A DNA stretch of 64,000 nt from Candidatus Iainarchaeum sp. (GCA_023129115.1 JAGMCR010000002.1:64001-128000), one strand, 5' to 3'; shown: positions 14,287 through 39,067, counted from the stretch's first letter. A program made the numbers and translations. The notes: generated by a model not told the origin, from the letters alone.

Positions 14287-14359
14287 TTACTGCGTCAAGG
14301 AGCCCCTGCTCAATTCCGCACCAGTCTATAAATAGTCCTTTGAGCAGAGCCTCGGAGGC

Positions 14360-15529
14360 ATGAGGACTGACCCTTACAACACCGGCACGAAGCTAGTGAA
14401 TTGCCTTGAGCGGGTTAGGCAATCGCTTGACCTATGTAAAGCCAACAAGCGGCTGATTCTTGAGTTCCACGCCGAGGCCGTTGCCCGTGGCTTGTCGGAA
14501 AAGCGGTGCCTTAAGTACGTGAGTACTCTCCGCAACCTCGGAACCCAACTTGGAAAGCCCTTTAACAAGGCGGACAAGCACGACATCATTCGCTTGCTCT
14601 CTTGGCTTGAGTCAACCGCGTACAAGGAGTGGACGAAGCACGACTACAAAGTCATTCTGAAATCGTTTTACAAGTGGCTGAACGGTGGAGAAGAGTATCC
14701 AAAGGTTGTTTCGTGGGTAAAAACAGGGATGAAGAACGGCAACCACATGCTGCCCGAGGAATTGCTGACCGAGGAAGACGTGCGTGCTTTAGTTGAAGCG
14801 TGTACGAACCCGCGCGACAAAGCTTTTGTCCTCACGTTGTACGAGAGTGGCTGCCGAATAAGCGAGCTGCTGACGTTGCAGGTAAAGAGCGTGAGGTTTG
14901 ACGAGCACGGCTCAATCTTGCGAGTGACTGGGAAGACCGGTGACAGGCGCGTGAGGGTGATTTCCGCGGCTCCGGCAATCGCGTTGTGGCTCGACAACCA
15001 CCCCACAAGGAAAGGGCACTTGTTTTGCTCCTTGGATGGGACGGGCATCAACTACTCGACCGCTAACGTGCTGTTAAGGAGGCTTGCTAAGAAGGCAGGC
15101 ATTACGAAGCGTGTTAATCCGCACGGTTTCCGCCACGCCCGGGCCACGTCGCTCGCGAACAAGCTCACAGAAGCCCAAATGAAGGAGTTCTTTGGTTGGG
15201 CTCAAAGTAGCGAGATGGCGGCTGTGTACGTCCACTTGTTGGGGCGGGACGTGGACGATGCCCTGCTAAGCATTTACGGCGTGAAGCCACCCGAGGACGC
15301 TCGCAAGGAGCGTTTCGTGCCTAGGGCTTGTCCCAGGTGCAAGGAGACTAATTCTCCTGCTAGTAAATACTGTTGCAGGTGTGGCAGTGCGCTCGACCTC
15401 GCAACAGCGCTAGAGGCTGATGACAAGCACAAGGAAGCCGATGCATTGATGAACGAGCTCATCAAAGACGACAGGATAAAAGCGCTTCTATTGGAGCGGT
15501 TGGTTGCCATCCAAGCAGAGAATCATTAA
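14360..15529 (+). CDS. tyrosine recombinase/integrase with C-terminal zinc ribbon
   Basis: ESGCRISE (R), GKTG (K), HGFRH (HxxR), FGW, AVYVH (Y); CPRC...CCRC. Confidence 0.95.
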   Translation: MRTDPYNTGTKLVNCLERVRQSLDLCKANKRLILEFHAEAVARGLSEKRCLKYVSTLRNLGTQLGKPFNKADKHDIIRLLSWLESTAYKEWTKHDYKVILKSFYKWLNGGEEYPKVVSWVKTGMKNGNHMLPEELLTEEDVRALVEACTNPRDKAFVLTLYESGCRISELLTLQVKSVRFDEHGSILRVTGKTGDRRVRVISAAPAIALWLDNHPTRKGHLFCSLDGTGINYSTANVLLRRLAKKAGITKRVNPHGFRHARATSLANKLTEAQMKEFFGWAQSSEMAAVYVHLLGRDVDDALLSIYGVKPPEDARKERFVPRACPRCKETNSPASKYCCRCGSALDLATALEADDKHKEADALMNELIKDDRIKALLLERLVAIQAENH

Positions 15530-15990
15530 CCTTTTCGTTTGAGGTTGTTGTATATATTGAGTGGTTCAGCGCTCAAATTCTCGCGTTCCTGGCCTTGGTT
15601 CAACTGATTTTTTAGGAATTCAATAGCTGCCAAGTAGCTCATCGGGAGCGCATCAGAAGTGTTTTCTCCCCCTGTTCAGGAATCCACATTACGAAAAAAT
15701 TCGGATTTGAGAATGTTGTATTCTCTCTTGTATTAATGGGGCAGTTTTCGGTGCGGATTCTAAGGCGTTGCTAGTGATTGACCATTGTGTAATTAGGATT
15801 CTAATTATTCAGAAAGTAGGGGTTGTGTGAAGCTCGGGGGTGAATACTGACCCTGATGAGGGTTCTGCATTACGAAAAAATTGGGATTCGGAAGTTGGCC
15901 TCCTTTTAGTGATAGAAAATGGATTTGGCCTTAGTTCACGTTTAAACATAGGTTTTTATTTGAGGACTGCTTTTTTGGCTAAGGAGCGGA

Positions 15991-16665
15991 TTGCTGATGA
16001 CTGATACTTTAGTTGATGTTTTGCTGATGCCGAACATTATGGCACTATGGGTTCCAATAATCATAGCGGCCGCCTTAGTAATCCTAATGGGATTGGTTGT
16101 CCGCCACAAAAAAGTTTCTATATCTAAGTCTAAAAAATCGCCAGATAACAAAAAAGTTGCTTTCAGATCACTTGTGATTGTTGCAGTACTATCGTTGGTA
16201 TTTTTCTTTGTTGAACCCCAGATAATAAAAGGTCTCTCCACACCACTTTTAACAATCCCATTTAGTGTTGTCCCCGCTCTTCTACTCGGATTATTTTACA
16301 CTGGACTTCAATACACTCCCATAGAAATCAAATCAGACAAGAAGAAAGCGACGCTAACAGTTGATTTTATTACTATTAATCTATGCGCACTCTTCGCATT
16401 CTTGACATTGTTTAACTTCTCTCCTTATTTCCCCGGCGCGTTCACTAGCACGAGCAACATAGCAATCATTTTCATAATTGCGTTGGTACAGACTTTTTTG
16501 TTCTCGCTGATTGTGTTCGCTTCGGAAAAAGTAAAATTCATCAGACTAAAAAATTTCCTTGGGATTCCAAATTGGCTGATATGTGTTATACTCTTTATCC
16601 TGCCTTGGTTGTTTTTGATGTATGAAAAAGCTATCCCAGTGGTGGGTGGCCTCAGGACCCTATAA
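15991..16665 (+). CDS. multi-pass membrane protein
   Basis: About 6 hydrophobic segments; start uncertain. Confidence 0.7.
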   Translation: MLMTDTLVDVLLMPNIMALWVPIIIAAALVILMGLVVRHKKVSISKSKKSPDNKKVAFRSLVIVAVLSLVFFFVEPQIIKGLSTPLLTIPFSVVPALLLGLFYTGLQYTPIEIKSDKKKATLTVDFITINLCALFAFLTLFNFSPYFPGAFTSTSNIAIIFIIALVQTFLFSLIVFASEKVKFIRLKNFLGIPNWLICVILFILPWLFLMYEKAIPVVGGLRTL

Positions 16666-16756
16666 TCAAAAATGCCTAAATCGGCATTTGTTTAAACGTT
16701 TGGACGATATGTATTTATTCTGCAAGCGCTTTTTGTTTGAGTCGGGGTGTTCTTCA

Positions 16757-19570
16757 ATGAAGCGAATGTTAGATGCATCTAAGGGCTCAGTTATAGTGGT
16801 GGTTTTTATCCTACTCTTAATTGTTGGGGTTTATGCGTTTGCTCCGTGTCCTGTTTCTCCACCAGTAAACGAAGGTGACCCACTGCCAATACCTTGCTTT
16901 GAAGAAGGTATGTGCATGGGTGGTTGTTGCTGCTATGATGGTTATCTTCTTCTCGAAAGGAATACTACTGAAGAACAGCCCAGCGCGATTACAGGTATGA
17001 TGGTAGCAACCGCACCTTTAGAAGGCAATGCAATTGAGCCCCACAAAGTGGTTAGTTTGGTTGGTTTTGAAGGCTATGACAAGAATAGGGACAAGGTTGC
17101 GGATTCCATGCAGAACGGTGTTTACTTAGAGGGCGCTACAAAAGAACTATTCACTGTTGCTTTTGACCACAAACCAACAGAAGAAGACAAAAAACTGGTT
17201 AGAGATATGGGTGGGGAGGTTGTTTACGATTTCTCATTGATTTACGCTTTAACAGTTAGGATACAACCAACCAAAATAACTGAGTATGCAGCAGCCAATC
17301 CACATGTAGTTATCGTGAGTGACCCCCGTGTAACTAGATCACTGAAGATATACCGCACAGCAAAAGTAGTTCGTGTTCGACCTCTAGTTTGGGAAACCTA
17401 TGGCTACAATGGTAGCGGGGAAGTAGTCACAGTAATGGATAGTGGCGTAGATGACTCCCACGCAGATTTACAAGGCAAAATAAAAAACTGGATGGACTGC
17501 AATCCTGCAGGATGCACTACTATTGGTCAGACACTGCATGACAACGTGGGCCATGGAACGAGTATTGCGGGGATTATTGTGGGGTCTGGGACGCAGGTGG
17601 GTGGTTCTAGTGGAGTAGCCACAGTGAACATTATGATTCATAGCCGGTTTACGGGCGAAGGCGGAGAAGTATGGGGTGGCTATTTTTCAGTGGATACTGA
17701 TGATAACACCCATTCCATTGACGGAACCCTTAATTGGGAGGCGGCTGACGGGCAGGACAATTACACAATAAAAGTAACCAACTCTACAGGGCTACCAAAC
17801 GGTGTTATTGGGGACGAAACTTCCGATTCAGACCCCTTAACCTTAACCACCAACTCATTCACAGAAACCAGTGAAATCCAGTACAAGTTTTACGTTAGCG
17901 CAGAGAGTGGCAATGCACATAACAGCACTGATGAAGCCTATTTCGCGCAAATGAGTACACCTATTGAATCGGTGGGGGATAGTTATAACCTCATGAGGGG
18001 ACTGGCACCAGGTAGCGAGCTTGTTTCCGTGAAAGTTGTGCCAGATGATAATGACATAGCTCATTTATGGACTATGAATAATGCCTATGATTGGATTGGG
18101 TCTAATTCTGAATCAGATGGCGTTAAAGTGGTTTCCATTAGTTTGGGTGGGACAACCGCTGACCCTATTGAATCAAAAGTCATTAGTAACACGATAGACA
18201 AAGGGGTTCTGCCCGTTGCAGCAACAGGTAATGATAACGGTGTTATCGACTACCCTGCTAGGTATCCTGAAGTGCTTGCTGTGGGGGCGATTGACAGCGA
18301 TGGAGACGTGGCGGATTACAGTAATTACGGGAACTCAAGTGAAGGCTCTGAAAAATGGCCCGATGTTGTTGCTCCCGGTGGGTCAAGCTGGTTCACTTAT
18401 GAAAAATACCCTGTTTTAACACTCGACACAAACGACGCTGAGTGTGTGACGAACACAGGCCTAACTACATGCGAAAGTTTCTCTGAAGAATACACTAATG
18501 ACTCCATCTATGCGTACGGTACTTCCATGGCTGTCCCCCACGTATCCGCGATAGCTGCCTTGATTGCTGAGGCGAAGGGGAGTTGGACTTACAACTCTTC
18601 TACTGACCCGTTGTGGGTAAAAATGGTTATTTCGATGACGGCTTGGGAGACCAACGAAACCAACCGTGGTTCTAAAGACATCTATGAAGGCTATGGAGTA
18701 GTCGCTGCCGACGCGGCAATCGAAGCGGTTATCTTCAACCACACGCTTGGGGACATTGAGTCAGATACTTTTGGCTCGGGATTGACTGACAAGAAGGTGT
18801 GGGCCCGCGAAGTTTCGCCGGGAGACAAGGAAATTGATTTCACGCTGGTGGTGCCAAGCGGCGCGGACTACGACCTCTACCTTTACAACAATACTCCTGA
18901 CCAGTACGGCCAGCCACAGATACTGGACAATTCGACAACTGCTGCGACCGGCGGCACAGAAAGCATTACCTACAACTTTTCGGCGAGTCAGGAAGCGTAT
19001 TTGGTGGTGAAGTGGGTCAGCGGTAACGGAGCATTTACTTTGTCTAGTGTGGAAGACAAGGACAAAATGAGTTTGATTCAGGGTTGGAACCAGTTTTCGT
19101 TCCCGAAGCTTCCGGCGAACAAGACTGTGGCCAACGTGTTCTCTTCAATTAGTGGTAGTTATGACCGGATAGATGATTACATCGCTAACAACAAGTCGTG
19201 GCGGATTTACGACGTAGCTGCAATTGGCTATTCCATGACGTTAAGCAACATTGAGGGGGGCAGGTCTTATCGCATTCATATGAACCAGGCCGACACAATT
19301 GAGTTCAGCGGCACGGACGTGGCGCCAATCAATATCTCGCTTTATGAGGGCTGGAATTGGCTCGCTTGGCCAGGCGAGACGGAGGCAATCGCCAGTGCGT
19401 TGAGCTCAATCGACGGGAGCTACAACAGAATAGATGAACTCTACGCTGGGGAGTGGGAAATTTATGATAGCTCCATCCCCGATGAGTACGACCAATCCCT
19501 GGACTACATGAAAAGAGGCAGAGGGTACGTAATTCTCATGAACTCTAACGACACACTCGAGGTGAATTAG
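16757..19570 (+). CDS. secreted S8 subtilisin-like serine protease
   Basis: VMDSG, HGT, GTSMA catalytic triad; N-terminal signal; C-terminal L..GWN repeats. Confidence 0.92.
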   Translation: MKRMLDASKGSVIVVVFILLLIVGVYAFAPCPVSPPVNEGDPLPIPCFEEGMCMGGCCCYDGYLLLERNTTEEQPSAITGMMVATAPLEGNAIEPHKVVSLVGFEGYDKNRDKVADSMQNGVYLEGATKELFTVAFDHKPTEEDKKLVRDMGGEVVYDFSLIYALTVRIQPTKITEYAAANPHVVIVSDPRVTRSLKIYRTAKVVRVRPLVWETYGYNGSGEVVTVMDSGVDDSHADLQGKIKNWMDCNPAGCTTIGQTLHDNVGHGTSIAGIIVGSGTQVGGSSGVATVNIMIHSRFTGEGGEVWGGYFSVDTDDNTHSIDGTLNWEAADGQDNYTIKVTNSTGLPNGVIGDETSDSDPLTLTTNSFTETSEIQYKFYVSAESGNAHNSTDEAYFAQMSTPIESVGDSYNLMRGLAPGSELVSVKVVPDDNDIAHLWTMNNAYDWIGSNSESDGVKVVSISLGGTTADPIESKVISNTIDKGVLPVAATGNDNGVIDYPARYPEVLAVGAIDSDGDVADYSNYGNSSEGSEKWPDVVAPGGSSWFTYEKYPVLTLDTNDAECVTNTGLTTCESFSEEYTNDSIYAYGTSMAVPHVSAIAALIAEAKGSWTYNSSTDPLWVKMVISMTAWETNETNRGSKDIYEGYGVVAADAAIEAVIFNHTLGDIESDTFGSGLTDKKVWAREVSPGDKEIDFTLVVPSGADYDLYLYNNTPDQYGQPQILDNSTTAATGGTESITYNFSASQEAYLVVKWVSGNGAFTLSSVEDKDKMSLIQGWNQFSFPKLPANKTVANVFSSISGSYDRIDDYIANNKSWRIYDVAAIGYSMTLSNIEGGRSYRIHMNQADTIEFSGTDVAPINISLYEGWNWLAWPGETEAIASALSSIDGSYNRIDELYAGEWEIYDSSIPDEYDQSLDYMKRGRGYVILMNSNDTLEVN

Positions 19571-19597
19571 AGGGGGATACTTGACCTGGTCAAGCTG

Positions 19598-19611
19598 TCC
19601 TCCCGGGGCTC
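19598..19611 (+). repeat. att-like copy 4 (left arm B, right arm A)
   Basis: TCCTCCCGGGGCTC followed by the same 28 nt that follow the tRNA. Confidence 0.92.
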
Positions 19612-19690
19612 TGACCCTACGGTAGTAGAGCCTGCACCAAACTATTTATAGAACTTTGAGCAGAAGCCCTTGCGATGGGCAGGATAAACC

Positions 19691-20260: not shown

Positions 20261-20322
20261 AACAACAAATGACTCAGTTCTAAAATAAAAACCTTTTTAT
20301 CCCTCTTAGAGTTATGTGCAAA

Positions 20323-20495
20323 GCCGTGGGCTAACCTTAAAAATGGTTGATGAGTGTAGTTACGCAGTATACACCGCGGGATGGTATCCATGATAGACAG
20401 GTCATTTCCTAGGAAGTTCCGCGGAAATGAGGTGTGTGAGGGGCAAAAAGCGGTGCAGGCTCTATAGCCGTACGAGCTGTTCCCTCCCGAGGCTC
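20323..20495 (+). repeat. ~170 bp duplicate of 13380-13552, including att copy 5 (20480-20495)
   Basis: Near-identical on direct comparison. Confidence 0.95.
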
Positions 20496-20661
20496 AGCGT
20501 CCTGGGGGGCGCAGCCCCCCACGAAGCCCATGACGTTGACACAAGTCAACGTCCAGTCCACGGGAAGAGTCCCCTCAGTAATACTGTACTAGCTGCTGCC
20601 GGGCGGCCTTGCGCCGCCCTCGTCTAACGTGCCGCCTGAGTTTCAGGCGCTCCCGAGGCTC
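20496..20661 (+). mobile_element. gene-free hairpin mini-cassette C1 with att copy 6 (20650-20661)
   Basis: AGCGTCCTGGGGGGCGCAGCCCCCC ... CTAACGTGCCGCCTGAGTTTCAGGCG CTCCCGAGGCTC. Confidence 0.75.
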
Positions 20662-20843
20662 AGCGTCCTGGGGGGCGCAGCCCCCCACTACCCCGGGAAG
20701 CGCCCCCCCAGGTGAGTGGGTAAGAGCTCGCTTCCGCTCGCGGTTTTTGTCTCTGGGAATCGCAGATTCCCAAGCCTAACGTGCTGTACCGTGAATCCCA
20801 ACGGATTTGCGGTTGTCCTGAGTTTCAGGCGCTCCCGAGGCTC
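20662..20843 (+). mobile_element. gene-free hairpin mini-cassette C2 with att copy 7 (20832-20843)
   Basis: Same head and tail as C1, different middle. Confidence 0.75.
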
Positions 20844-24868: not shown

Positions 24869-24952
24869 CACACCCCCTTTCCGCGGAAGCTTCCCCGGAA
24901 ATGACTTGGGTGTGGCTGATTTTGGGCGCAGGCTCTAGAGCCATACGAGCTG

Positions 24953-24967
24953 TTCTCCCCCGAGCTC
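24953..24967 (+). repeat. degenerate att copy 8 (left arm A upstream)
   Basis: GCAGGCTCTAGAGCCATACGAGCTG then TTCTCCCCCGAGCTC. Confidence 0.8.
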
Positions 24968-26243: not shown

Positions 26244-26334
26244 TTTCTGTTGTTTCAACTGTGTATGGACCTTAGTTCTCACGCTTCATTTCCGCGGAAC
26301 TTCCTAGCCGCAGGATTTATAGCCGTACGAGCTG

Positions 26335-26350
26335 TTCCCTCCCGAGGCTC
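26335..26350 (+). repeat. att copy 10 (left arm A, right arm B)
   Basis: TTCCCTCCCGAGGCTC exact. Confidence 0.95.
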
Positions 26351-26462
26351 TCAGACCACGTCAAGGAGCCCCCGCTCAATTCCGCACCGGTTTACATGCC
26401 TGTTTATAAAGGTTTACGATATATCGTACACCTTTATATAATAGTTCAAACACCGATTAAGC

Positions 26463-27653
26463 ATGGAGCTAGGACTCTGGAAGGTTGTGGAGCAATGGAA
26501 TTACTGGAAGGAAAAGCCAGAAACCGGTATTCCCAGGGACGTGACCGCAGAGGCAATGGAGTTCTTTAAAGGCAGCGAAGCGCTTTATTTTTTTGGCCCG
26601 CGGCGAGCCGGGAAAACATTTGTTTGCATGCAGCTGCTGTCAAAGCTGTCAAAGAAGCACGGGAAGAAATCTTGCTTGTACGTGAACTTTGAGGAGCCTG
26701 CTCTTGCCGGGAACCTGCGCACGGAATTCATAGAAGAAATCGTTGTAGAATTCAAAAAAGTGCATGGGAAGTGGCCTCGCTTCGTTTTCCTTGACGAAGT
26801 CCAGAACGTTAAAGGCTGGGAGCGCTGGGTCCGCGGAGCAGTGGACAGGAAACGGTTCAAGGTTTTTGTCACTGGATCTTCTGCGAAACTCTTGAGTTCA
26901 GAGTTCTCCACTTCTCTTGGGGGGAGGGGGATAGGCTTTCTGGTATTGCCGTTTTCCTTTAGCGAGTTTAGGCGTGCAAAACCAAAAGCGGGGCTCAAGG
27001 AGTACCTTGAGATTGGGGGCTATCCAGCGGTTGTACTGGAAAAAAACGAGCGCAAGCGCAGGAGGATGCTGGAAGAGTATTTTGACACTGCCATCATGAG
27101 GGATATAGTGGCTAGGCACGACGTGAGAGACGTGCCAACATTAAGAACGCTTGCCGTTTACTTACTGACAAATTCTGGAAAGCGCTTCAGCTACAATAAG
27201 CTTCGGGCAATGACACATCTCTCTTTTGACGCGCTTAGGCAGTACCTGTCATATCTTGAGGACGCATTAGTGGTTTTCCAAGTACCGTATTTTTCGTACT
27301 CCATGAAAAAAGCGCTTGAAAAGCCCCGCAAGTACTATGCTTATGACCTTGGGCTGCAGGGAGCTGTATCAAAGTCGTTTAGTCCGGACTGGGGAAGAAA
27401 AGCCGAGAACGCGGTTGCAATAGAGCTGGTTCGGCGAAGAAAAGAAATTCAATACTACTCAAACAAGTTTGAAGTCGATTTCATAATAAAAGAAGGAACA
27501 AAGATAAAGCCGGTAAATGTCTGCTACTCAGAGAAACCACCGCAAAGGGAAACAAAAAGCCTTGAAGAGTTTTCCAAAAAACACAAGTCAGAACCCCCTC
27601 TGTTGCTTTGCGGGAAGGATAACATCTTGAAGTGGCTGAAAACAAACCAATGA
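26463..27653 (+). CDS. AAA_14/DUF4143 ATPase
   Basis: GPRRAGKT, FLDEVQ, VTGSS, GGYP, EVDF. Confidence 0.92.
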   Translation: MELGLWKVVEQWNYWKEKPETGIPRDVTAEAMEFFKGSEALYFFGPRRAGKTFVCMQLLSKLSKKHGKKSCLYVNFEEPALAGNLRTEFIEEIVVEFKKVHGKWPRFVFLDEVQNVKGWERWVRGAVDRKRFKVFVTGSSAKLLSSEFSTSLGGRGIGFLVLPFSFSEFRRAKPKAGLKEYLEIGGYPAVVLEKNERKRRRMLEEYFDTAIMRDIVARHDVRDVPTLRTLAVYLLTNSGKRFSYNKLRAMTHLSFDALRQYLSYLEDALVVFQVPYFSYSMKKALEKPRKYYAYDLGLQGAVSKSFSPDWGRKAENAVAIELVRRRKEIQYYSNKFEVDFIIKEGTKIKPVNVCYSEKPPQRETKSLEEFSKKHKSEPPLLLCGKDNILKWLKTNQ

Positions 27654-27681
27654 AAAAATGCTCCTTGACGTGGCCAAGCCG

Positions 27682-27695
27682 CCCTCCCGGGGCTC
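27682..27695 (+). repeat. att copy 11 (left arm B, C head downstream)
   Basis: CCCTCCCGGGGCTC. Confidence 0.9.
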
Positions 27696-27776
27696 AGCGT
27701 CCTGGGGGGCGCAGCCCCCCCACTGGGCGGTTCGGCACGCGCGGGGTTTATTAACCTTCTTTTCGTTGGCTGTGCA

Positions 27777-28623: not shown

Positions 28624-28854
28624 AATCCCTCCCAAGGCTCCATCTCAGCGTCCTTAGGGGGAGCGCAGCTCCCCCTGGCCCAGACGAACAACAACCGAAC
28701 ATCCTGTGGGGGATGTCCGGTATCCTGCGGGATGTACGTCATACCCTGGGAAGCCTCACCCCCTCAGTAATCCTGTACTAATCTGTCTCTTGGGGCCTTG
28801 TGCCCCAAAGCCTAACGTGCCAGCTGAGTTTCAGCTGAATCCCTCCCGAGGCTC
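28624..28854 (+). mobile_element. gene-free mini-cassette C3 between att copies 12 (28624-28642) and 13 (28838-28854)
   Basis: AATCCCTCCCAAGGCTCCA ... GGGGGAGCGCAGCTCCCCC ... CTAACGTGCCAGCTGAGTTTCAGCTG AATCCCTCCCGAGGCTC. Confidence 0.78.
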
Positions 28855-28944
28855 TCATTCTATGGTAGTAGAGCCTGCGCCAAAGTGTCTTGCAAGTTGA
28901 TTAGCAGCAAAAGCCTGACACAATTTTCCGAGCTTGGAACACTT

Positions 28945-30864
28945 CTATTTGGAGTCTCCTAGCACTTGGTGGTAAAAGTTGGACTCCCGGGCCAGTGCAT
29001 CCACTTCGTTTTTCTTGACCCTAAAGCCGTGTGTTTCGCCTTCGTATTCCACGTATTCGTGCCTCACTCCTTTTTCTTCCAGTGCCCGAACCACTTCCCT
29101 GGAGCACTCGGGGGTGACAACCTTGTCATCACTACCCTGGAAAAGAATCATGGGGTTTTTCAACGCTTCCAAGTGATAAATGGGAGAACGGTCTTTGAAC
29201 ACCTCTCTTCCCTTGGAAAGTGTTGTTCCCACCAGGTTTTCAATGTACCGTGACTCGAATTTGTGAATTTGTTCTTCTAAAGTGATTAGGTTGCCGATGC
29301 CGTAGTAACTAGCTCCCACTGCAAACAAGTCAGGATACTGGGTCATCATCCTTTGCACTAGGTACCCTCCTGCACTCCCTCCCCTGATGGCAACCCTGGA
29401 CCCATCTACTTGTCCCTTTTTTATCAAGTGCTTCACGGCGTTGGCCACGTCCTCGGCGTCAACCACGCCCCAGGAGGATGGGAGCTTGTCCCTGTACTTC
29501 CTGCCGTAGCCCGTGCTTCCCCGGTAGTCCACGTCCACCACGGCAAAGCCGGACGAAGTCCAGAATTGCGTGACAAAGGAAAACGAGGCGTGGGTATTGC
29601 TCGTGGGGCCTCCATGCGCCACTACCAACAACGGCGGTTTTTCTCCCTCCATGGGCAGGTATCCGCTGTTTTTAGGGGGGTAAAAAAAGGCGTGTGCCTG
29701 TTCTCCGCCTCCAGTGGAGTAAGTTATGAACTGGGGGAGGGAAACGTCTTCCGGCTTCATTTCCAGCGAAGAACCCTCCCTTAACACATCCAGCTTCTTG
29801 GACTCCATGCCAAAGGCGTACACGCTGGCAACGCTGGTACTGCTGGCCCCAACGAAAAATATGCTGCCTTCCTTGTCTGTTTTCAGGTGGTGGTACGTGT
29901 TCAGACCTGTTTCCACGCGTGACACAGATTTGTCTTCAGGGTCAACAAATACCAAGTGCTCTGTTCCTTCTTTGGTCATCACGGCTACTATCCTGCCGTC
30001 GGGAAGGAAGTCGTAAGTGCTCTGCCCGAAGGCCCACAACGGCCTGCCGAACTCGGCTTGTTCACAGGTAATCCTATTCACTTCGCCGTCCCAAGCGTAC
30101 AGGTTCCACCAATTCTCAGGCGAAAAAGGGTCTTCCGCCACCCTGTCCTTGGCATAATACAGCTTGTCCTCTTGGTTGAAGCGGGGCAGGCAAATAGCGC
30201 AGTCTTTCCCCCCCTCCACTTTTTTTACGTCACGGACGCTGTCCTTCCTCCACTTGCCCATCATTAACTCCGTGCCATCCCACGGCATGTTGGGATGGTT
30301 CCACTGGAGCCACGCCACGTATTTTCCCGAAGGCGAAAAGACAGGACTAGCATAGAAATCGCTGCCCCGGGCAACGATGCGGGGCTCCACCGCTTTTTCA
30401 GAACGCGCGTCCAGCACGGCTAGAAGATTCTCGTTTTCCTTGTCTCCGCACTCTTTTTCGTAGACAAACAAAAGGCTTTTTCCGTCAGGGCTTACTGTGA
30501 GCGAGGCATACTTACCCAAGGACCCGTCTTTGTTTGTTGGGGGGGTGAGGGGCCTGGCTGCAGAAGAGCTTGGGGGTTGATGGTAAATGCGTTGGTCCTG
30601 GAAGTTGGAGAAGTAAACATTCCCCCCAAAAACCGCGTACGCTCCTCCACCGTACTCGTGAACCCTGTTCCTGGCGCTGAAACCAGGGGGGGTGACGTCC
30701 CCCCTGTTTTTGGAGACTACTACGCAACGCCCGCCTTCGGCCGGCCGCATTTCCAGCCAGTAGGCGTCACTGCCGTCGGTTTGAATCTCGCTCAGTCTGA
30801 CCACGTCAGAAAATACTTGCTGGGGGGAAATGGCGGACTGCCATTGAAGAAACGGTTTTTGCAT
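28945..30864 (-). CDS. S9 family peptidase
   Basis: HGGPT, GGSAGG, DKVV, HGF; beta-propeller N-terminus. Confidence 0.93.
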   Translation of the reverse strand: MQKPFLQWQSAISPQQVFSDVVRLSEIQTDGSDAYWLEMRPAEGGRCVVVSKNRGDVTPPGFSARNRVHEYGGGAYAVFGGNVYFSNFQDQRIYHQPPSSSAARPLTPPTNKDGSLGKYASLTVSPDGKSLLFVYEKECGDKENENLLAVLDARSEKAVEPRIVARGSDFYASPVFSPSGKYVAWLQWNHPNMPWDGTELMMGKWRKDSVRDVKKVEGGKDCAICLPRFNQEDKLYYAKDRVAEDPFSPENWWNLYAWDGEVNRITCEQAEFGRPLWAFGQSTYDFLPDGRIVAVMTKEGTEHLVFVDPEDKSVSRVETGLNTYHHLKTDKEGSIFFVGASSTSVASVYAFGMESKKLDVLREGSSLEMKPEDVSLPQFITYSTGGGEQAHAFFYPPKNSGYLPMEGEKPPLLVVAHGGPTSNTHASFSFVTQFWTSSGFAVVDVDYRGSTGYGRKYRDKLPSSWGVVDAEDVANAVKHLIKKGQVDGSRVAIRGGSAGGYLVQRMMTQYPDLFAVGASYYGIGNLITLEEQIHKFESRYIENLVGTTLSKGREVFKDRSPIYHLEALKNPMILFQGSDDKVVTPECSREVVRALEEKGVRHEYVEYEGETHGFRVKKNEVDALARESNFYHQVLGDSK

Positions 30865-30958
30865 TTTTCTCACCGGTATACTACATCCCTCGAAAACACA
30901 TTTATAATTTAGTCTTCCGGAATATAATGGTGGGGTACTCCTTAGCCTAGCCAAGCAG

Positions 30959-30971
30959 CCCTCCCGAGGCT
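30959..30971 (+). repeat. att copy 14 (left arm B-like)
   Basis: GCCAAGCAG CCCTCCCGAGGCT. Confidence 0.88.
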
Positions 30972-31060
30972 TCTATCTATTAACGCCTCAAAAAAGCCAT
31001 AAATCCTAACCGCACGCCACTGTTCTTATCATCTTTGTGCCCTCGTGCTAGACATTACCC

Positions 31061-31945: not shown

Positions 31946-32103
31946 TAATGCACTGCCGCATTATAAACCTTCCCCAAGCTTTTCAACCGAACAAACCGCA
32001 TTAAAACACTGGTGAGAACAGAGCCAAAAACTGTGTTTTTTGGATTTCAGGGCTTGATTGGCCTGGTTTAGACACCCCCTTTCCGCGGAAGCTTCTTGAA
32101 GAA

Positions 32104-32114
32104 CCCTCCCAGGC
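32104..32114 (+). repeat. degenerate att copy 15
   Basis: CCCTCCCAGGC directly after a TTCCGCGGAA palindrome. Confidence 0.55.
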
Positions 32115-32222
32115 GAATCCAAAATCGCATGGGGGACTTGAAGTTTATTAAAGAGGATATGGGTAAGGGTTATTATCTGGTTAGGAAAACATTTAACTTG
32201 GAGAAAAAAGAGGTGGTATGGA

Positions 32223-32867: not shown

Positions 32868-32874
32868 CGCACAT

Positions 32875-32935
32875 CATTTCCGCGGGAGCTTCTTGGGAAA
32901 TGGCCTGTGTGCCCCGTTCTGGGGGCGCAGGCTCT
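32875..32935 (+). repeat. arm A remnant with core deleted (site 16)
   Basis: Double palindrome then GCGCAGGCTCT with no core. Confidence 0.65.
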
Positions 32936-33015
32936 GTACCTCTGCGGCTAGGACCAAAACCCTTAAATAGTATTGTTACTGTAATATTAACATATTGTTA
33001 ATTTGGGTGTAATCA

Positions 33016-33513
33016 ATGAAGGGTCTTTCGGGTAAGGAGTTGGAGATGGTCTCGTTTCTCGAGCTGAAGGAAAAGTATTTTTTCACGAGGAGCGACGTGA
33101 GGCGATTTTTCAAGAGCGAGAACGAGATGAACGTCTACCTGCACAGGCTTAAGAAAAAAGAAAGAATCGTGAAGCTGAACAGAAGCAAGTATTTCCTTGT
33201 CCCAGTGAAAGCGTTCGGGGGCTTCTGGGCAGAGCACCCCCTCGTGATTATTGATGAAATCTTTAACGGGGAGAACTACTTCATTAGGGGGATGGCTGCA
33301 GCACATTACTGGGGGTTGATAGACCAGATTCCCACGCAGGTAGAAGTGGCTTGCACGAACAAGCAAGGAAAGAAAAAGATTTTTGGGTTCATTATCCTGT
33401 TCAAGAGGGTGAGGCCAGCAAGCATGAAGGGCTTCGTGAAGAGGAAAATCGGGAAGCATCCTTTCCGGATAATGCCAAAGAAGGGGGTTGAGGAATGGCT
33501 GAAATCTCGTTGA
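33016..33513 (+). CDS. abiEi: type IV TA antitoxin, AbiEi-like
   Basis: wHTH-like N-terminus, AAAHYWGLIDQIP; upstream of AbiEii. Confidence 0.8.
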   Translation: MKGLSGKELEMVSFLELKEKYFFTRSDVRRFFKSENEMNVYLHRLKKKERIVKLNRSKYFLVPVKAFGGFWAEHPLVIIDEIFNGENYFIRGMAAAHYWGLIDQIPTQVEVACTNKQGKKKIFGFIILFKRVRPASMKGFVKRKIGKHPFRIMPKKGVEEWLKSR

Positions 33514-34256
33514 TGAACACGGCAGAACTAAAGCACGTTGCCGGAAAAATGGGGTTCAACTTAATCTACCTGGAAAAGGATTATTTCCTGACGCTGCTGC
33601 TGTATTTGCTCAGGGACATTAGTGGCATTTGCTTCAAAGGCGGCACTGCATTGAACAAGATATTCCTCAATCACACGCGCCTCAGTGAGGACCTGGACTT
33701 CACGTGCACTGGCGACTTAAAAAAAGTAAAAAAGGAAGTGCTGGAAGTACTGGGAGAAAACAAAAGCATTTTCACTCGTCACGAGTTTGATAACCAGACA
33801 CAAAACTTCTTCCGCCTAAAAGTATTCTACAAAAGCGATTTCTCCAAGAACAGCTACGTGGTTCTTGACGTGAACAGCAAAGCATCGGTTCACAAGAAAC
33901 CAAAAGCAGAAGTAGTGCCGCACTTCTATGAATCTATTCCACAATTCAAGGTTAAGACACTGGCACCTGAAGAACTTGTAGCTGAAAAAGTGAGGGCACT
34001 GATAACCCGGAACCAGCCCCGGGATTATTATGATGTCTACACTCTCCTGCAAAATGGTTACAAGGTGAACAAAGCCCTGCTAAGAAAAAAGTTGGCCGAA
34101 GCAAATGAATGCTTTGATATTGACAGGATATTCGTAAACGCCAAGAAGATTTATTCAAAGTGGGATGAGGATGTTGCCCATTTAACAAACAAACCAGTAA
34201 CGTACACCGCTGCCATCAAGGCTCTCCAGAAAGAGTTCGGGTACAAGAGCAAATAA
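33495..34256 (+). CDS. abiEii: AbiEii nucleotidyltransferase toxin
   Basis: EKDY, FKGGTAL, RLSEDLDF, AEK, RDYYD. Confidence 0.92.
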   Translation: MAEISLMNTAELKHVAGKMGFNLIYLEKDYFLTLLLYLLRDISGICFKGGTALNKIFLNHTRLSEDLDFTCTGDLKKVKKEVLEVLGENKSIFTRHEFDNQTQNFFRLKVFYKSDFSKNSYVVLDVNSKASVHKKPKAEVVPHFYESIPQFKVKTLAPEELVAEKVRALITRNQPRDYYDVYTLLQNGYKVNKALLRKKLAEANECFDIDRIFVNAKKIYSKWDEDVAHLTNKPVTYTAAIKALQKEFGYKSK

Positions 34257-34401
34257 CAGGCACCTCGTTTCCGCGGAGCTTTCTGGAAAGCAAGGGGGGC
34301 ACCCCCGCGCGTCCCCCGACGTTGGCCTTAAGCCAACGTCCAGCTGCAACGCCCTCCCCGCTTGGCGCCTTCGGCGCAGAATCTAGAGCCACACGACTTG
34401 G

Positions 34402-34415
34402 CCCCCCTTAGGCTC
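34402..34415 (+). repeat. degenerate att copy 17
   Basis: Arm A-like GCGCAGAATCTAGAGCCACACGACTTG then CCCCCCTTAGGCTC. Confidence 0.65.
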
Positions 34416-34447
34416 TAATCTCGCTGTGTTTCCGGGGCTCTTGCTTT

Positions 34448-35116
34448 TCAGCGCCAGCTTATCTCGCCTGTTTTTAGGACAGAGCCGTCGTTCATGTCTA
34501 TGTACGCCACCAGTCCTTTCCCCCCTTCGCCGCTGACAGGGCCCAGCCTTATGTCATAAACCGGATAATCAGCGACCAGGTAATTGTAATCTGCCGTGAC
34601 CGACATTGCCCCCAGGCCTTCCAAACCAGTTTGTTGCTTTGCTATTTCAACGGCTTCCGGGCTATCAATGTTCCACTTGGACGTATCCGCCAGTCTTTTC
34701 CCGGCGTGTTCTTCCCAGCTGCCCTCGCTTATCTCCATCGCGTCTTTGCCCTCGTAGCACCCGAACCCACCTGAGAGCAGCTCGCCTTTGTTTATGACCG
34801 CGAAGACGAGCGTGAACGTGTTGTCAGACTGCTTTTTCTCGAATGTCACTATCCACGTATCGCTCCTGCCGTCCTCAACCGCCGCGTGGCCTTTCTTGTG
34901 CCCGACAACGGTTCCTCCAGCCCCTATATCGCGGAGGTGCACGTCACCGAACTCGGCTGACGCGCGCTCGTAAGCCATGTCAAATGCTTCCCTGGCCGTT
35001 ACTTCATTCACCGGAGCCGCGGGTGCCTTTGCCCCCTCTGCCCCCTCGCCTGCTCCCTGGACGCAGCCCATCGTAACTGCAAGCACTAACAGCAAAACCA
35101 ATAATGATTTCCTCAT
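34448..35116 (-). CDS. hypothetical lipoprotein
   Basis: MRKSLLVLLLVLAVTMGC lipobox. Confidence 0.75.
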   Translation of the reverse strand: MRKSLLVLLLVLAVTMGCVQGAGEGAEGAKAPAAPVNEVTAREAFDMAYERASAEFGDVHLRDIGAGGTVVGHKKGHAAVEDGRSDTWIVTFEKKQSDNTFTLVFAVINKGELLSGGFGCYEGKDAMEISEGSWEEHAGKRLADTSKWNIDSPEAVEIAKQQTGLEGLGAMSVTADYNYLVADYPVYDIRLGPVSGEGGKGLVAYIDMNDGSVLKTGEISWR

Positions 35117-35198
35117 CAAAAGACCTCCAGCAGGAGGATACGCCGAACGCCTATAAAAAGGCACTCTTTGGGCCCAGGCTCTAGACCCGTGCGATTTA

Positions 35199-35216
35199 TT
35201 CCCTCCCGAGGCTCCA
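35199..35216 (+). repeat. att copy 18 (left arm A, right arm B)
   Basis: TTCCCTCCCGAGGCTCCA. Confidence 0.95.
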
Positions 35217-35309
35217 TTACCACGTCAAGGAGCCTCTGCCTTTTTTGCATGAGGGAAGTTTATATATGCTCACTGTGGCAAGAAGATACATAATAGAGGA
35301 GGATTTAGT

Positions 35310-35924
35310 TTGTTTGATTTGATCGATTTTTTAGAGGAACACTGGAGAGCGGTTGGCATTGCTTTAATAATCTTCCTTATATCCTGTATCTTCACGCTTG
35401 CCTCAATCTTAATTGGACAGATGGAACCGGTAGTGGATATTCTAATAACAAATGGTTCTCCACATTTCATTAGTTTTGTTACTTTTTCATCGTCAATGAC
35501 CAACATCTTAACTACTATGGGCTGGCTAATTGCTTTTTGTTGGATGGCCGCTGTTTACTTGAATGAATTGGCGATATGGAACTATGGAAAAGCAAACGAA
35601 GAAAAGTTTTATTTGGGTCCGGGAGATGATAACGAACATTTTGACAAGCATGGAGAGAAGTATCACCCGAAGAAAGAAAAGAATCAGGAAATGACAATAA
35701 TGGCTGATGGATTACTCGAATTCAAAAGAATCCTGCTCGCTGTAGTTTATGTGGGCATAATCCTATTTGCGATAGGAACAATTTTTAGTTTGGATAGTTT
35801 AACAATGTTCTATTTGGGGCATATCAGCTTTTCGTTTGTTAGTTTATTTGTTATGATGGCGTTCAGCATTTTTAAATTATACCCTAAGATTGCACCATCC
35901 CACAGAACCGATGGAGAGGGTTAA
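35310..35924 (+). CDS. hypothetical membrane protein
   Basis: About 4 TM segments, AT-rich DNA. Confidence 0.65.
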   Translation: MFDLIDFLEEHWRAVGIALIIFLISCIFTLASILIGQMEPVVDILITNGSPHFISFVTFSSSMTNILTTMGWLIAFCWMAAVYLNELAIWNYGKANEEKFYLGPGDDNEHFDKHGEKYHPKKEKNQEMTIMADGLLEFKRILLAVVYVGIILFAIGTIFSLDSLTMFYLGHISFSFVSLFVMMAFSIFKLYPKIAPSHRTDGEG

Positions 35925-35941
35925 GTCGCAGTTGGGATAAT

Positions 35942-37372
35942 ATGAAAAACACAAAGAAAGCATCAAAAACAGCGCATAAGAATCAACGCGATTCATTTGT
36001 TAGATCCCAAAATGAACATTGCTTTCTGAAAGATAAACAAAAAATAAAGTATCATTCCTTTATTCTTCTGGAGATAGTTCCTCTGGAAAGAATCCAAAAA
36101 CTTATCCATGGGCTTGACAAGCTGTATGCTAAAGCTTCAGTGGCATCTGAATCTCAATTGAGATATAAGGACATTCTTTCAACCAGTCATCTAAAACTCT
36201 TCGAGAGAAATACAATAAATTTACCGTATGTAGTTACAAAAAAACTCAAAGGCAAAATTTTGTCTAATTGTGTATTTCACGATCTCGGAGATCATATTCG
36301 GCACATCCATATCTCAATTTACAAAGTTTTGCCATCTACCGTGATTCTTCAGATTCAAGTACATCTAAATGATAAACTAAGCAAAAAGATAAACGATGTT
36401 ATTTATAGCTACCACAAAGAGATTAGGAAACCAGTTGAGACACCTAGGGGCAAATACACCCAGATATATGGCCCCCCTCATCAGAAAGAGAATCAAATTT
36501 ATCAAGTTAGAAAAGACTTGCACAAGGAAGCTATTGATTTCTTAAAAAAGTATTTCACAGGATATTTTTTTGAATTGTCTGATGAGAGCATCTCGGTAGT
36601 ACCCTCAATCGATTTGTTTTCTTTGGATTATCCTAACGAAGATGGCCAAATTTTGGATTGGGGCGATAAAAACCATGGATTCTTTCAGTGTTTCAGCACA
36701 TATATCGGGCCGTGGGATTCTTTTAAGTACAAAAACTACCTGTTTTGTCTTGAATCCAAAAGAAACGCCAAGTTTGAGAATTATCTGATATTTGCCAACA
36801 GAAAGACCACATCGAATAATATGTATCCCGATATTGATGCTTCCATTGAAGAAACCCTTAATTTCTGTTCCTTTGATTTAGTGGCCATTAACAGGTGGAT
36901 TAAAGTTCAAGAAGAGATGGTAGGAACGCTTAATTCAACCGTGTCGAGGGAAATATCTCAGATACAACAAAATAGATTTAGTAAAGCTATAGAAACCAGA
37001 AAATCTGTTCTTAAGAGTATTTTTCCCTTTGAACGCTTTGCAACAGAGTATGTAAGATACAAAATGATTCCTGATAAATTTGAATTTAAAAGCCTTAAAG
37101 ATGAGAGAGCCCCCGACAAACAAATTGACTTGTTCAATGGATTGAAAGAAGGAATCACTGCGAAAATTACGGAACTACATGAATTGATTAATGGATTTAC
37201 AAGACAGCATGAAAGTATTATGGCCTTAAAAAATCTGGAATTCAGTAAGAATATGCAAAACCTTATTATCATATTGACAATAGCTCTTATAGTGTTAACG
37301 ATAATCCAAATAGGCATAGGGGCATATGGATTAAAAACACCTGGTTTAATAGTGAGATTTCTCTTCGGATGA
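35942..37372 (+). CDS. hypothetical protein with C-terminal TM helix
   Basis: 476 aa ORF in AT-rich DNA. Confidence 0.7.
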   Translation: MKNTKKASKTAHKNQRDSFVRSQNEHCFLKDKQKIKYHSFILLEIVPLERIQKLIHGLDKLYAKASVASESQLRYKDILSTSHLKLFERNTINLPYVVTKKLKGKILSNCVFHDLGDHIRHIHISIYKVLPSTVILQIQVHLNDKLSKKINDVIYSYHKEIRKPVETPRGKYTQIYGPPHQKENQIYQVRKDLHKEAIDFLKKYFTGYFFELSDESISVVPSIDLFSLDYPNEDGQILDWGDKNHGFFQCFSTYIGPWDSFKYKNYLFCLESKRNAKFENYLIFANRKTTSNNMYPDIDASIEETLNFCSFDLVAINRWIKVQEEMVGTLNSTVSREISQIQQNRFSKAIETRKSVLKSIFPFERFATEYVRYKMIPDKFEFKSLKDERAPDKQIDLFNGLKEGITAKITELHELINGFTRQHESIMALKNLEFSKNMQNLIIILTIALIVLTIIQIGIGAYGLKTPGLIVRFLFG

Positions 37373-37416
37373 TAACTCGGGGGTTATCCTCTAATCCACC
37401 TACCCGTCTGAGCTTT

Positions 37417-37538
37417 ATTCCGCACCAGTCTATAAATAGTCCTTTGAGCAGAGCCTCGGGGGCATGAGGACCGACCCTTACAATACCGGTACGAAGCTAG
37501 TGAATTGCCTTGAGCGGGTTAGGGGGTGTAGAGCCAAC
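37417..37538 (+). pseudogene. 5' remnant of the integrase with its promoter
   Basis: Near-identical to the integrase upstream region and first 20 codons (MRTDPYNTGTKLVNCLERVR, ATG 37464). Confidence 0.9.
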
Positions 37539-37615
37539 TTTATTAATAGAGGCGTGCATAAAGCCAGTAGAGGGCAATTTATTTATATAGCCGGTTCATT
37601 TGTATGGCTTAGAGG

Positions 37616-38350
37616 GTGAACAGAGAGATGGTTGGCGCAGTTATGGATTCGCAGTACGTACTGAACACTTACTCACCAGAATTAAGTCGTGCTATCTTCT
37701 CAATCCAAAGCCCCTTAACACAGGGCTACACCTACTTGCGGAGGAACCGCAAGGCCAAGACCGTCGAAAAGCTCTTTGAAGAGCTTGACATGCTCACACA
37801 CGCAGAGAAAGAAGAATTGATAACCGAGTTAATTGCGTACCTCCCCAAAGACTCCAGCATGTCCGAGTTCGAGAGAGCCAAAAAAGAGCTCGCGAACCTT
37901 GACAAAAACGCCAAGATAAACAACTTGCTGAAAGACCTAAAGGTTAAGTACGAACGGCTAAGCCAAAAAGACAAACTAGAAATATTTAAGCTATCAATAT
38001 CAAAAACAACGCCCACCCTAGTCGCGCTCAGGGACTTCATATCCGAGAACATGCTTGAAGCAAAAGACATCGAAGCACTCATGGTCATAGACCAAGCGGT
38101 TTACGTCGCTGGAACGCTATGCGACGAGATACTGAAAGCAATTGAAAAGAACCAAGACGAAAGAGTGGAACTACTTCACGCTTTCTTGTTTTTCCTTCTC
38201 CTGGAGCTAGAAGCGATTCGCCGCGGCACAGTCGAGCCCGAAACGCTTTACGACAATATCGCGTTCATCACGAGCTTCACAGACAAGACCCGTGAAGAGC
38301 GAAGCATTGAAATCAAGCAAAGCGTGTTCGGGGTAGCGGGAGTAGCTTAA
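37616..38350 (+). CDS. hypothetical protein
   Basis: 244 aa helical ORF coupled to the next gene (TAATG). Confidence 0.7.
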   Translation: MNREMVGAVMDSQYVLNTYSPELSRAIFSIQSPLTQGYTYLRRNRKAKTVEKLFEELDMLTHAEKEELITELIAYLPKDSSMSEFERAKKELANLDKNAKINNLLKDLKVKYERLSQKDKLEIFKLSISKTTPTLVALRDFISENMLEAKDIEALMVIDQAVYVAGTLCDEILKAIEKNQDERVELLHAFLFFLLLELEAIRRGTVEPETLYDNIAFITSFTDKTREERSIEIKQSVFGVAGVA

Positions 38351-39027
38351 TGAACTCCATAGACTCGAACGTGGTCATTGCAGTAGCGAACCCGTTTGAC
38401 TACTCCCACAAGACATCAGTCAAAACAGTCAAGAACCTAGACGAGCTGCTCGTCCTCCTTAACGTGTTCACGGAAAGCAAGGCAACCATACAACGGAAGT
38501 ACAACAAGTCGCTCGCGAAGTCGGTAACGGAAATAAGAAAAATCACGGCCGAGAGGAACTCCCTGCTCTTCGGCAAGCTCGTTGTCCAAGCCCTCGAAAA
38601 ACTCAAGAAAAACAACCCAAATCTAGAAGGCTTCATAGACCTCGTCTACTCTGAATTCCGGACCTGCGAAAACCAAAAGGACATCAGCGCAGCCATGAGC
38701 CGACTAAACGTATTTGGAGTAGCCTTAATCAAGTCACTGGAGGATGTCCTGAGGAAAGAGCGCCCAGACATTGAGTTTTATGAGCCAACCGAAGAGTTCA
38801 ACAAAATGCACCTAAAAGTCTATGACCTGATTGCCGGGTCATATTTCCAGGACCGAAACGACAAGCTCATCTACACCGACTGCGTGGCCCTCGCGCAGAT
38901 TGAAAACGACAAGCTCACGTTCCACACGTTTGACGAGGAGTTCCACAAGACCGCGAAAAGCACTAATGCTTCACTACCCCAGAAATACTCCAAATTAGTG
39001 GATTTCAACAAGCTAAAACCAAATTAA
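38350..39027 (+). CDS. PIN-domain-like protein
   Basis: IDSNVVIA...D.ND...HTFD. Confidence 0.7.
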   Translation: MNSIDSNVVIAVANPFDYSHKTSVKTVKNLDELLVLLNVFTESKATIQRKYNKSLAKSVTEIRKITAERNSLLFGKLVVQALEKLKKNNPNLEGFIDLVYSEFRTCENQKDISAAMSRLNVFGVALIKSLEDVLRKERPDIEFYEPTEEFNKMHLKVYDLIAGSYFQDRNDKLIYTDCVALAQIENDKLTFHTFDEEFHKTAKSTNASLPQKYSKLVDFNKLKPN

Positions 39028-39054
39028 ACGGGGACACTTGACCTAGTCGAGCCG

Positions 39055-39067
39055 CCCTCCCGAGGCT
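39055..39067 (+). repeat. att copy 19 (left arm B)
   Basis: ACTTGACCTAGTCGAGCCG CCCTCCCGAGGCT. Confidence 0.9.

Follow-up and report, generated by a model that had tools for sequence, protein, structure and literature searches.

Arm family B as the probable attachment arms of a zinc-ribbon integrase in a tRNA-Thr array of a DPANN archaeon

The window analysed here is a 64,000-nucleotide (nt) stretch of a Candidatus Iainarchaeum sp. genome (positions 64001-128000 of contig C12 of the host genome G000, an assembly of 1.25 Mb in 19 contigs that is 88.6% complete). It contains a tandem array of small modules behind a tRNA-Thr(CGT) gene, separated by copies of the tRNA 3' end (the core), flanked by recurrent sequences (arms) of the families A, B and C, and including one gene for a tyrosine integrase. 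We propose that part of this array is a small family of tRNA-Thr-specific elements, probably moved by this Xer-like, zinc-ribbon integrase, in which arm B forms the P and P' arms of attP, the attachment site of the element. The anatomy of the modules, the intact catalytic and zinc-binding residues of the integrase, the co-conservation of the integrase and the left B arm, and homologues adjacent to tRNA genes are all observed. Throughout, C-numbers denote contigs, G001-G005 related genomes, and L-numbers loci or contigs from G000, its relatives or metagenomes.

A tandem array on tRNA-Thr and its B modules

The core, CCTCCCGAGGCTC, is the 13-nt 3' end of tRNA-Thr(CGT), an intact gene at 10872..10945 on the + strand (ARAGORN; Rfam tRNA 70.7 bits) and the one standard tRNA gene that ARAGORN and Rfam find in the window. 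Its last 13 nt (10933-10945, +) are the first core copy of the core search, corresponding to attB, the chromosomal attachment site, and to the left end of the array. At two mismatches or fewer, the window holds 18 matches to the core against 1.85 expected. Sixteen of these are array copies, all on the + strand between 10933 and 40110, starting at 10933, 13540, 14272, 19599, 20483, 20649, 20831 and 26067 in the first half of the array, and at 26338, 27683, 28628, 28842, 30960, 35202, 39056 and 40098 in the second. The other two are an inverted copy at an integrase stub (37451) and a 2-mismatch match at 1465. Two degenerate cores stand behind recognisable A-left arms (24956 and 34403), and the 16 cores together with these two delimit ~17 modules in ~29 kb, or 2.3% of the assembly.

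The left and the right flank of each core were sorted into families (tRNA, A, B, C or unclassified). Written as left/right, the junctions are tRNA/A at 10933, A/weak A-like at 13540, tRNA-like/B at 14272, B/A at 19599, A/C at 20483, C/C at 20649, C/A at 20831, A/unclassified at 24956, A/B at 26338, B/C at 27683, C/A at 28842, B/unclassified at 30960, A/unclassified at 34403, A/B at 35202 and B/unclassified at 39056. When read from right arm to left arm, most modules are self-consistent, which is the expectation from sequential site-specific insertion of circles into one core.

The right arm of family B contains a 14-mer, CCACGTCAAGGAGC, that is exact on the + strand at 26356 and 35220, while its reverse complement GCTCCTTGACGTGG is exact at 27660, i.e., the 14-mer on the - strand. 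Variants were found at 14290 (+, 2 mismatches, with an exact 12-mer at 14292) and at 19576 (-, 3 mismatches); two further copies, at 39036 and ~30938, differ from the 14-mer at more than 3 positions, yet align as B-left arms. The real B copies all adjoin a core, and the B motif occurs at 7 cores of the array. At 3 mismatches or fewer, the 14-mer has 20 matches against 6.6 expected, a number that none of 100 shuffles reached; the 3-mismatch matches away from cores are probably mostly chance. A further exact copy in the genome (C15:33698) lies away from any core and looks like chance. Besides, each of the three B-right arms has the hexamer GTCAAG at +22 from the start of its core, and three of the four B-left arms have CTTGAC at -19, the remaining left arm being degenerate; near cores, these hexamers occur 7 times against 1.04 expected.

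Three modules are bounded by B arms on both sides, and their direct repeats (14272/19599, 26338/27683 and 35202/39056) differ from the 13-nt tRNA-Thr 3' end by 0-1 mismatch. The autonomous module (14285-19598) encodes the integrase, a 224-aa open reading frame (ORF) and an S8 subtilase. Its left core (14272..14284, +; core search) is preceded by 12 nt of continued tRNA identity (25 nt in all) and followed by the B-right (P') arm (14285..14317, +, with GTCAAG at 14294-14299), the integrase promoter motif GCACCAGTCTATAAATAG (14318..14335, +; 5 copies in the genome), an inverted core copy directly 5' of the integrase ATG (14347..14359, -; core search) and the gene of the 389-aa integrase (14360..15529, +). 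The cargo, i.e., the hydrophobic 224-aa ORF and the 982-aa subtilase, occupies 15991..19570 (+), and the module closes with the B-left (P) arm, which carries the palindrome CTTGACCTGGTCAAG, and the core at 19599-19611 (together 19570..19611, +).

The integrase-free module (26351-27682) has a single gene, an AAA_14/DUF4143 ATPase (26463..27653, +), which matches the PADLOC candidate defence gene PDC-S01 (E 4e-95). Its core and B-right arm (26338..26394, +) were recognised by the 14-mer and by identity to 14269-14328 (85% over 60 nt, including the first bases of the integrase promoter), and its B-left arm, an exact reverse complement of the B-right 14-mer, ends with the closing core (27655..27695, +). 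Because the B-right homology runs into the start of the integrase promoter, this module looks like an integrase-deleted derivative of the integrase element. In streptococci, a cis-mobilizable element (CIME) is an integrase-less, cis-mobilizable derivative of an integrative element; in the same manner, 26351-27682 is bounded by both B arms and carries no recombinase. Homologues of the ATPase cassette in 40 relatives, the best of them 41% identical, were followed up and discarded, their context being uninformative.

The decayed module (35215-39055) begins with a core and B-right arm (35202..35240, +) and contains four ORFs without family match, low G+C and an integrase stub. The stub (37412..37523, +), 95% identical to 14308-14419, comprises the integrase promoter, an inverted core (37451-37463, -) and the first 21 integrase codons, after which the gene is truncated. 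Over 49 nt, the closing B-left arm and core (39030..39068, +) share 88% identity with the right end of an element in the related genome G005. Between the B-right arm and the stub (35300-37400) lie ORFs of 204 and 476 aa with 35-41% G+C, in a genome with a mean of ~56%, neither of which has a family match in Pfam, NCBIfam or PADLOC. A fourth, hybrid single-gene module (28855-30959; S9 peptidase) combines an A-right arm (28855-28884) with a degenerate B-left arm and core (30938..30972, +). Flank reading and junction classing agree with the preliminary description of the array, in which the three modules had been named as bounded by B arms and the B motifs had been placed at these positions; autonomous, decayed and integrase-free B members indeed stand side by side, represented by an intact integrase, a 21-codon stub and an ATPase-only module.

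The resident integrase and its link to arm B

The integrase is a tyrosine recombinase (PF00589, E 5e-24) with the catalytic set R166, K192, H255, R258, W280 and Y290, and with a C-terminal CxxC...CxxC zinc ribbon after the catalytic tyrosine (C324, C327, C338, C341) that is followed by a long helix. All 29 aligned relatives have the same catalytic residues and the same four cysteines. The AlphaFold model (mean predicted local distance difference test score, pLDDT, 82) consists of a helical N-domain, the catalytic domain, the zinc ribbon and the long terminal helix, and its top structural matches are archaeal XerA. A role as XerA chromosome-dimer resolvase was rejected, as the protein scores 131 bits against the NF040815 cut-off of 220 and is patchy in the lineage. 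We also rejected an integrase of the suicidal SSV type, since the ORF is intact in the integrated state and not split: attP lies outside the integrase ORF, with an uninterrupted 389-aa frame and a + strand core 76 nt upstream of the ATG.

PF00589 has one match in the whole G000 genome, which is the integrase of the window, and serine recombinases were not detected in the assembly (88.6% complete). Homologues occur in 12 of 41 genomes, counting G000, and in two of the five other genomes of the family, a patchy distribution as expected for a mobile gene; the closest relatives belong to Iainarchaeum/Diapherotrites and Micrarchaeota metagenome-assembled genomes, which marks the host as a DPANN archaeon. 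PF00589 had no match in G002, G003 (85% complete) or G004 (98% complete), and these archaea of the same family seem to be without XerA as well. A same-strand tRNA gene lies 55-270 nt upstream of the homologue in 6 of 38 genome loci (L008, L020, L028, L029, L030 and L041), many of the other 32 being located at contig ends or having a gene that was matched only partly. In metagenomes, tRNA-Leu precedes the homologue in four of five loci.

The motif GCACCAG(A/T)CTATAAATAG precedes integrases down to 45% protein identity. A metagenome scan with this promoter motif returned 10 loci, six of them with an integrase homologue behind the motif, of which L069 is 83% identical and the five others 45-47%; no integrase match was found behind the motif in L066, L067 (with the A-type spelling), L063 and L064. 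The inverted core directly 5' of the integrase ATG recurs at the stub, in L006 (829-841, -) and in the metagenome contig L069, and may be an integrase-binding site for autoregulation. Scans of IMG/VR with arm A, with the core plus arm B and with the integrase protein gave nothing. The word 'zinc' is absent from a review on archaeal integrases (PMC8371274). We met no account of this zinc-ribbon tyrosine-recombinase family in the papers searched, the supplements of which may list DPANN integrases or arrays.

The link between the integrase and arm B comes from a comparison across genera. In G005, which belongs to another genus, the element L006 carries an integrase that is 84% identical in protein and 80% in DNA, and the only DNA common to this element and the integrase module consists of the integrase, a stretch of ~160 nt behind it, and 38 nt of B-left arm and core (92%), which close the G005 element ~5 kb downstream of the integrase. 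No similarity was found between the cargo proteins of the G005 element and those of the window module, and the ORFs adjoining the integrase, considered as possible shared parts, proved unrelated in G000 and G005. Because the integrase and the B-left arm are co-conserved while the cargo differs, arm B can be assigned with reasonable confidence to the attP of the resident integrase, as its putative P/P' arms. That arms belong to a resident integrase is expected of any integrative element and is unsurprising alone.

Symmetry of the junctions and a proposed mechanism

Circle junctions were built in silico by joining the right end, the core and the left end of each module, and complementarity was scored around every centre. 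For each of the three B modules, and for the A modules M1 and M4, the best inverted symmetry is centred exactly on core nucleotide 5, with 17-22 complementary positions of 35 and runs of 6-14; in the A module M7, this centre ranks second. No symmetry at core nucleotide 5 was detected in the C modules or in 7 natural hybrid junctions. In the tRNA, core nucleotide 5 opens the 3' strand of the acceptor stem, at the point where this stem meets the T-stem. The arms enclose a central region of 27 bp in B and 29 bp in A, which would match a whole Xer-type core site in approximate length, given the 11-6-11 layout of dif described in PMC8371274.

Among more distant elements, L030 (38% identity, tRNA-Asp) has its own 11-nt inverted arms centred on the equivalent tRNA position, and L028 has 17-nt inverted arms centred elsewhere, while the symmetry of L061/L065 and L062 is weak; inverted arms of at least 11 nt occur in two of the four distinct distant elements with both ends known. 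A general rule by which the arms are centred 8 nt before the tRNA end was considered and rejected, because it is strong in one of the four elements (L030), whereas L062 shows it weakly, L028 shows it displaced and L061/L065 do not show it.

We propose the following scheme. A circular B element would have the order B-left arm, 13-nt core and B-right arm, with the arms as inverted repeats whose CTTGAC and GTCAAG are symmetric about core nucleotide 5. The integrase would bind, and exchange strands within, the central core region that the element has in common with the tRNA, so that insertion would split the arms to opposite module ends and rebuild the tRNA. The hexamer arms may give attP its identity, being recognised either by the additional C-terminal module of the integrase or by an accessory protein, and excision would need two matching ends. 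A module keeping both B arms could use the integrase in trans for excision and insertion, and repeated insertion into one core would produce a tandem array. Under this scheme, the three B elements are autonomous (14285-19598), integrase-deleted (26351-27682) and decayed (35215-39055).

Several observations weigh against this assignment of arm B. The adjacency of arm and integrase is not conserved, as no core or B-right arm was found upstream of the integrase in L006 (841 nt, to the contig end) or L069 (766 nt), and the stub of the decayed module lies 2.2 kb from its B-right arm. The arms of the integrase module itself are the least symmetric: in our own reading of the flanks, 12 of 17 positions pair, whereas 14 of 14 do so in the ATPase module. 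Taken singly, the B-left variants at 30938 and 39036 score no better than borderline, with 11-12 in an arm classifier by local alignment whose background 99th percentile is 11. In addition, two of the four distinct distant elements with both ends known are without clear inverted arms, and contig C123 of G003 contains an A-left/core/B-right junction, yet no integrase was found in this 85% complete genome. Finally, no excision, circle or empty-site junction was found in Logan contigs, in which three public runs of one study, one of them perhaps the origin of this DNA, cover the region; the contigs break at cores and arms, and the joints have short sides (20-56 nt) or lie in repeats or at other depths. 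This result says nothing on mobility either way. The junction in G003:C123 is the only real B copy among the matches to the 14-mer with 2 mismatches in five relatives, which are about as frequent as those of the reversed control and were discarded, as were L070, L071 and L073, chance matches of the 14-mer inside coding DNA.

Arm A and competing explanations

The A ends are long, ~95 nt on the left, and carry a palindrome, TTCCGCGGAA, the exact 10-mer of which occurs 7 times in the genome, with 5 array copies and 1 more at another A-type site, on C13. The subterminal A motif around TTCCGCGGAA lies at 11015-11040, 13466-13496, 20409-20439, 24870-24893, 26281-26304, 32072-32095, 32869-32892 and 34260-34283, often right after a stop codon. 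Two A-right arms (19612 and 40111) include the integrase-type promoter, and neither copy is followed by an integrase. Because the A-right arms keep this rare promoter, the A elements probably descend, as judged from sequence, from an integrase-bearing sister lineage. Searches for arm A and the integrase covered 31 genomes of the class, IMG/VR and one metagenome scan, the last of these with the promoter motif shared by A and B as query. Arm A was found in this family only, occurring in G000 and G004 among the class genomes, with an A-left arm in G003, and none of these searches returned an A-linked integrase. Likewise, no second tyrosine recombinase was found in G000, and none in the A-arm carriers G003 and G004.

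The preliminary description had taken B cassettes as the family of the resident integrase and had suggested that A cassettes may need a second integrase on the same tRNA. The first part gains support from the integrase-bearing B...B module and from what it shares with G005. Integrase paralogs beside arm A, sought in the genome and its relatives, were not found; an integrase for A may be missing, or the resident one may be used across families.

According to one competing explanation, the array is largely fossil and immobile: each arm family had its own integrase, and those of A and C have been lost or reside elsewhere in the pangenome, which corresponds to the second integrase of the preliminary description. 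This would account for the core arrays with A arms in G004 and G003, where no PF00589 was found, for the many degenerate cores and truncated arms (24956, 34403, ~32926), for the integrase stub at 37412 and for A-right arms in which an integrase-type promoter persists without an integrase following it. However, the searches just described found no A-linked integrase, and an A-right arm with 0 mismatches at the tRNA-less C13 site suggests fairly recent movement. We regard this explanation as possible, with some doubt.

According to another, the arms are inherited ends without a role in specificity, and the resident integrase moves A, B and C alike through the ~27-bp core region, which would make a second integrase unnecessary. 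The single tyrosine recombinase, with no serine recombinase found in the genome, is consistent with it, as are the symmetry of A and B arms about the identical core nucleotide, the hybrid module with A-right and B-left arms (28855-30959) and the rare promoter motif of the integrase in A-right arms, which points to common descent. However, the B-left arm has stayed 92% identical between genera next to cargo that was exchanged, which would speak for constraint; the ~95-nt A ends have their own TTCCGCGGAA palindromes and no arm sequence in common with B; and a second integrase could be unassembled in a genome that is 88.6% complete. We consider this explanation rather unlikely.

A more ambitious reading, which we judge improbable, is that of a working gene-capture platform of DPANN archaea, with one Xer-like zinc-ribbon integrase shuffling small, often single-gene cassettes of several arm classes (A, B, C and others), all symmetric about one tRNA nucleotide. 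If true, the tRNA gene would take the role of the integron attI, and in integrase-free relatives the array would serve as a reserve open to reactivation by any incoming element.

An integron-like cassette platform, with the junctions as folded, attC-like sites for an integrase of the integron type, appears very improbable. It would fit the many single-gene modules, the imperfect palindromes around each reconstructed site and a weak match of the integrase to IntI4, but the integron models score far below their cut-offs (TIGR02249 46.8 bits versus 265; NF011946 37.4 versus 435), the two arms of one site stand at opposite module ends, which places the crossover centrally and not at an attC edge, genes occur in both orientations, and a tRNA 3' end serves as the core. 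That the modules are transposons, with the arms as terminal inverted repeats and the core as a target-site duplication, is hardly credible: inverted repeats do occur at module ends with direct repeats flanking them, but the direct repeat is always the 13-nt tRNA 3' end in one orientation, the inverted repeats begin 5-9 nt from the core and not at the ends, the sole recombinase of the B modules is a tyrosine integrase with tRNA-adjacent homologues, and a Pfam scan of 29 ORFs of the window, some of which remain without match, revealed no transposase domain.

Further traces of A-type modules were seen in the array and outside it. An A-left arm without core at ~32926 implies that some modules have fused. 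A second, tRNA-less integration site in G000 (C13:142767-143620; L004 6780-7620, -) consists of a tRNA-like remnant with core, an A-right arm (0 mismatch to the 21-mer motif of arm A), two toxin-antitoxin-like ORFs and a closing core, and the same two-ORF module lies directly behind tRNA-Thr(TGT, with intron) in G004. Core runs with A-type and other arms stand behind tRNA-Thr(TGT) in G004 (C17:218-3010 and C12:15656-16981), G003 (C94 and C123) and G001 (C36). The AbiEi/AbiEii module at 32954-34277 has 78% DNA identity with G004 (L056 9125-10445), where it directly follows an A-right arm; being common to both genomes, it indicates that cassettes of type A pass between genera by exchange or inheritance.

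Relation to known systems

The genomes of DPANN archaea are tiny, and their routes of gene gain are little known. The locus is a case of tandem accretion at a tRNA site with integrase-less derivatives, a known principle in a new lineage (DPANN) and at unusual density. Tandem re-use of one attachment site is known in archaea and bacteria, the examples quoted being two-element tandems (PMC8371274, PMC6563490), and conserved P/P' arms flank the core in SNJ2-type elements (PMC5861418). The classical archaeal tRNA-targeting elements share with the present locus a tyrosine recombinase, a core at the tRNA 3' end, an unsplit integrase, P/P' arms and site re-use. They differ from it in that the integrase family here is centred on DPANN archaea and has an invariant zinc ribbon, and in that ~17 modules in 29 kb, mostly of 0.15-5 kb and integrase-free, are far denser than the tandems described.

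In the tycheposons of Prochlorococcus (bioRxiv 10.1101/2020.12.28.424599), islands grow by accretion and leave partial tRNAs and integrase fragments. Insertion at tRNA genes, older elements pushed inward, degenerate elements, a small streamlined host and cargo for defence or niche adaptation are common to both, whereas the present case has an archaeal host, distinct arm families on one core and sharp module boundaries. Among the 29 ORFs scanned against Pfam, no domain of a replication module (primase, helicase or polymerase) was found. Accretion is also described for streptococcal integrative elements and for the ssrA-specific islands of Dehalococcoides (PMC5704250, PMC7563491, PMC3146451). 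There, too, integrase-less modules bounded by the attachment sites of an autonomous neighbour stand in tandem at one RNA gene, although those systems are bacterial, tied to conjugation or larger islands, and have demonstrated mobilisation in trans, which here is a prediction. Integrons, including archaeal ones (bioRxiv 10.1101/2022.02.06.479319), resemble the array in their mostly small and often single-gene cassettes beside one tyrosine recombinase; the array differs in its non-integron integrase (by model score), its symmetric split sites on a tRNA core and its mixed gene orientation.

Island building by accretion, known from bacteria, operates in a DPANN lineage too. For the very large family of zinc-ribbon integrases, the locus offers a concrete set of substrates, i.e., attP-B, attP-A and the tRNA attB.

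Additional observations on the array and on arm C

Candidates for defence genes (PDC-S01 and AbiE) are found among the genes of the array, as are proteases and a carotenoid-like cluster. The array also has a guaA subunit B gene (39110-40045), probably cargo because it is a second copy of one on C13, to which it is 45% identical. After the last degenerate core, a TauE-family gene (40133-40917) is preceded by the integrase-type promoter motif. A T-rich flank, TTTTATA, follows several cores (24969- and 39069- in the window; L004 ~6765, -; L006 7120-). It may be ancestral DNA from downstream of the tRNA that marks the ends of sub-arrays, and may also hint at flanking host DNA carried along.

Arm C is the start of a unit of ~170-180 nt composed of GC hairpins, a T-run and a small hairpin. 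It begins 0-4 nt past the 3' ends of various tRNAs or tRNA-like remnants and ends, where visible, in a copy of the local tRNA 3' end. In the window, C units lie at 20496-20661 and 20662-20843 and start at 27696, 28644, 50638 and 51880; in the rest of G000, they are found at C2:19481, C4:7051, C4:39295(-), C12:27393(-) and C13:82224(-). There are 10-11 copies in the 1.25-Mb genome, two of them with a ~140-nt insert, and no Rfam match was obtained at gathering score. The unit could be a multi-tRNA miniature integrative element or a tRNA-trailer RNA. One copy follows a tRNA-Leu(CAA) with intron (50517-50635), which was detected with the ARAGORN intron option only; ~1.2 kb past this gene, a degenerate repeat of its 3' end (~51860-51880) precedes a second C unit. 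The tRNA-Leu(CAA) locus is a second, small accretion site in the window.

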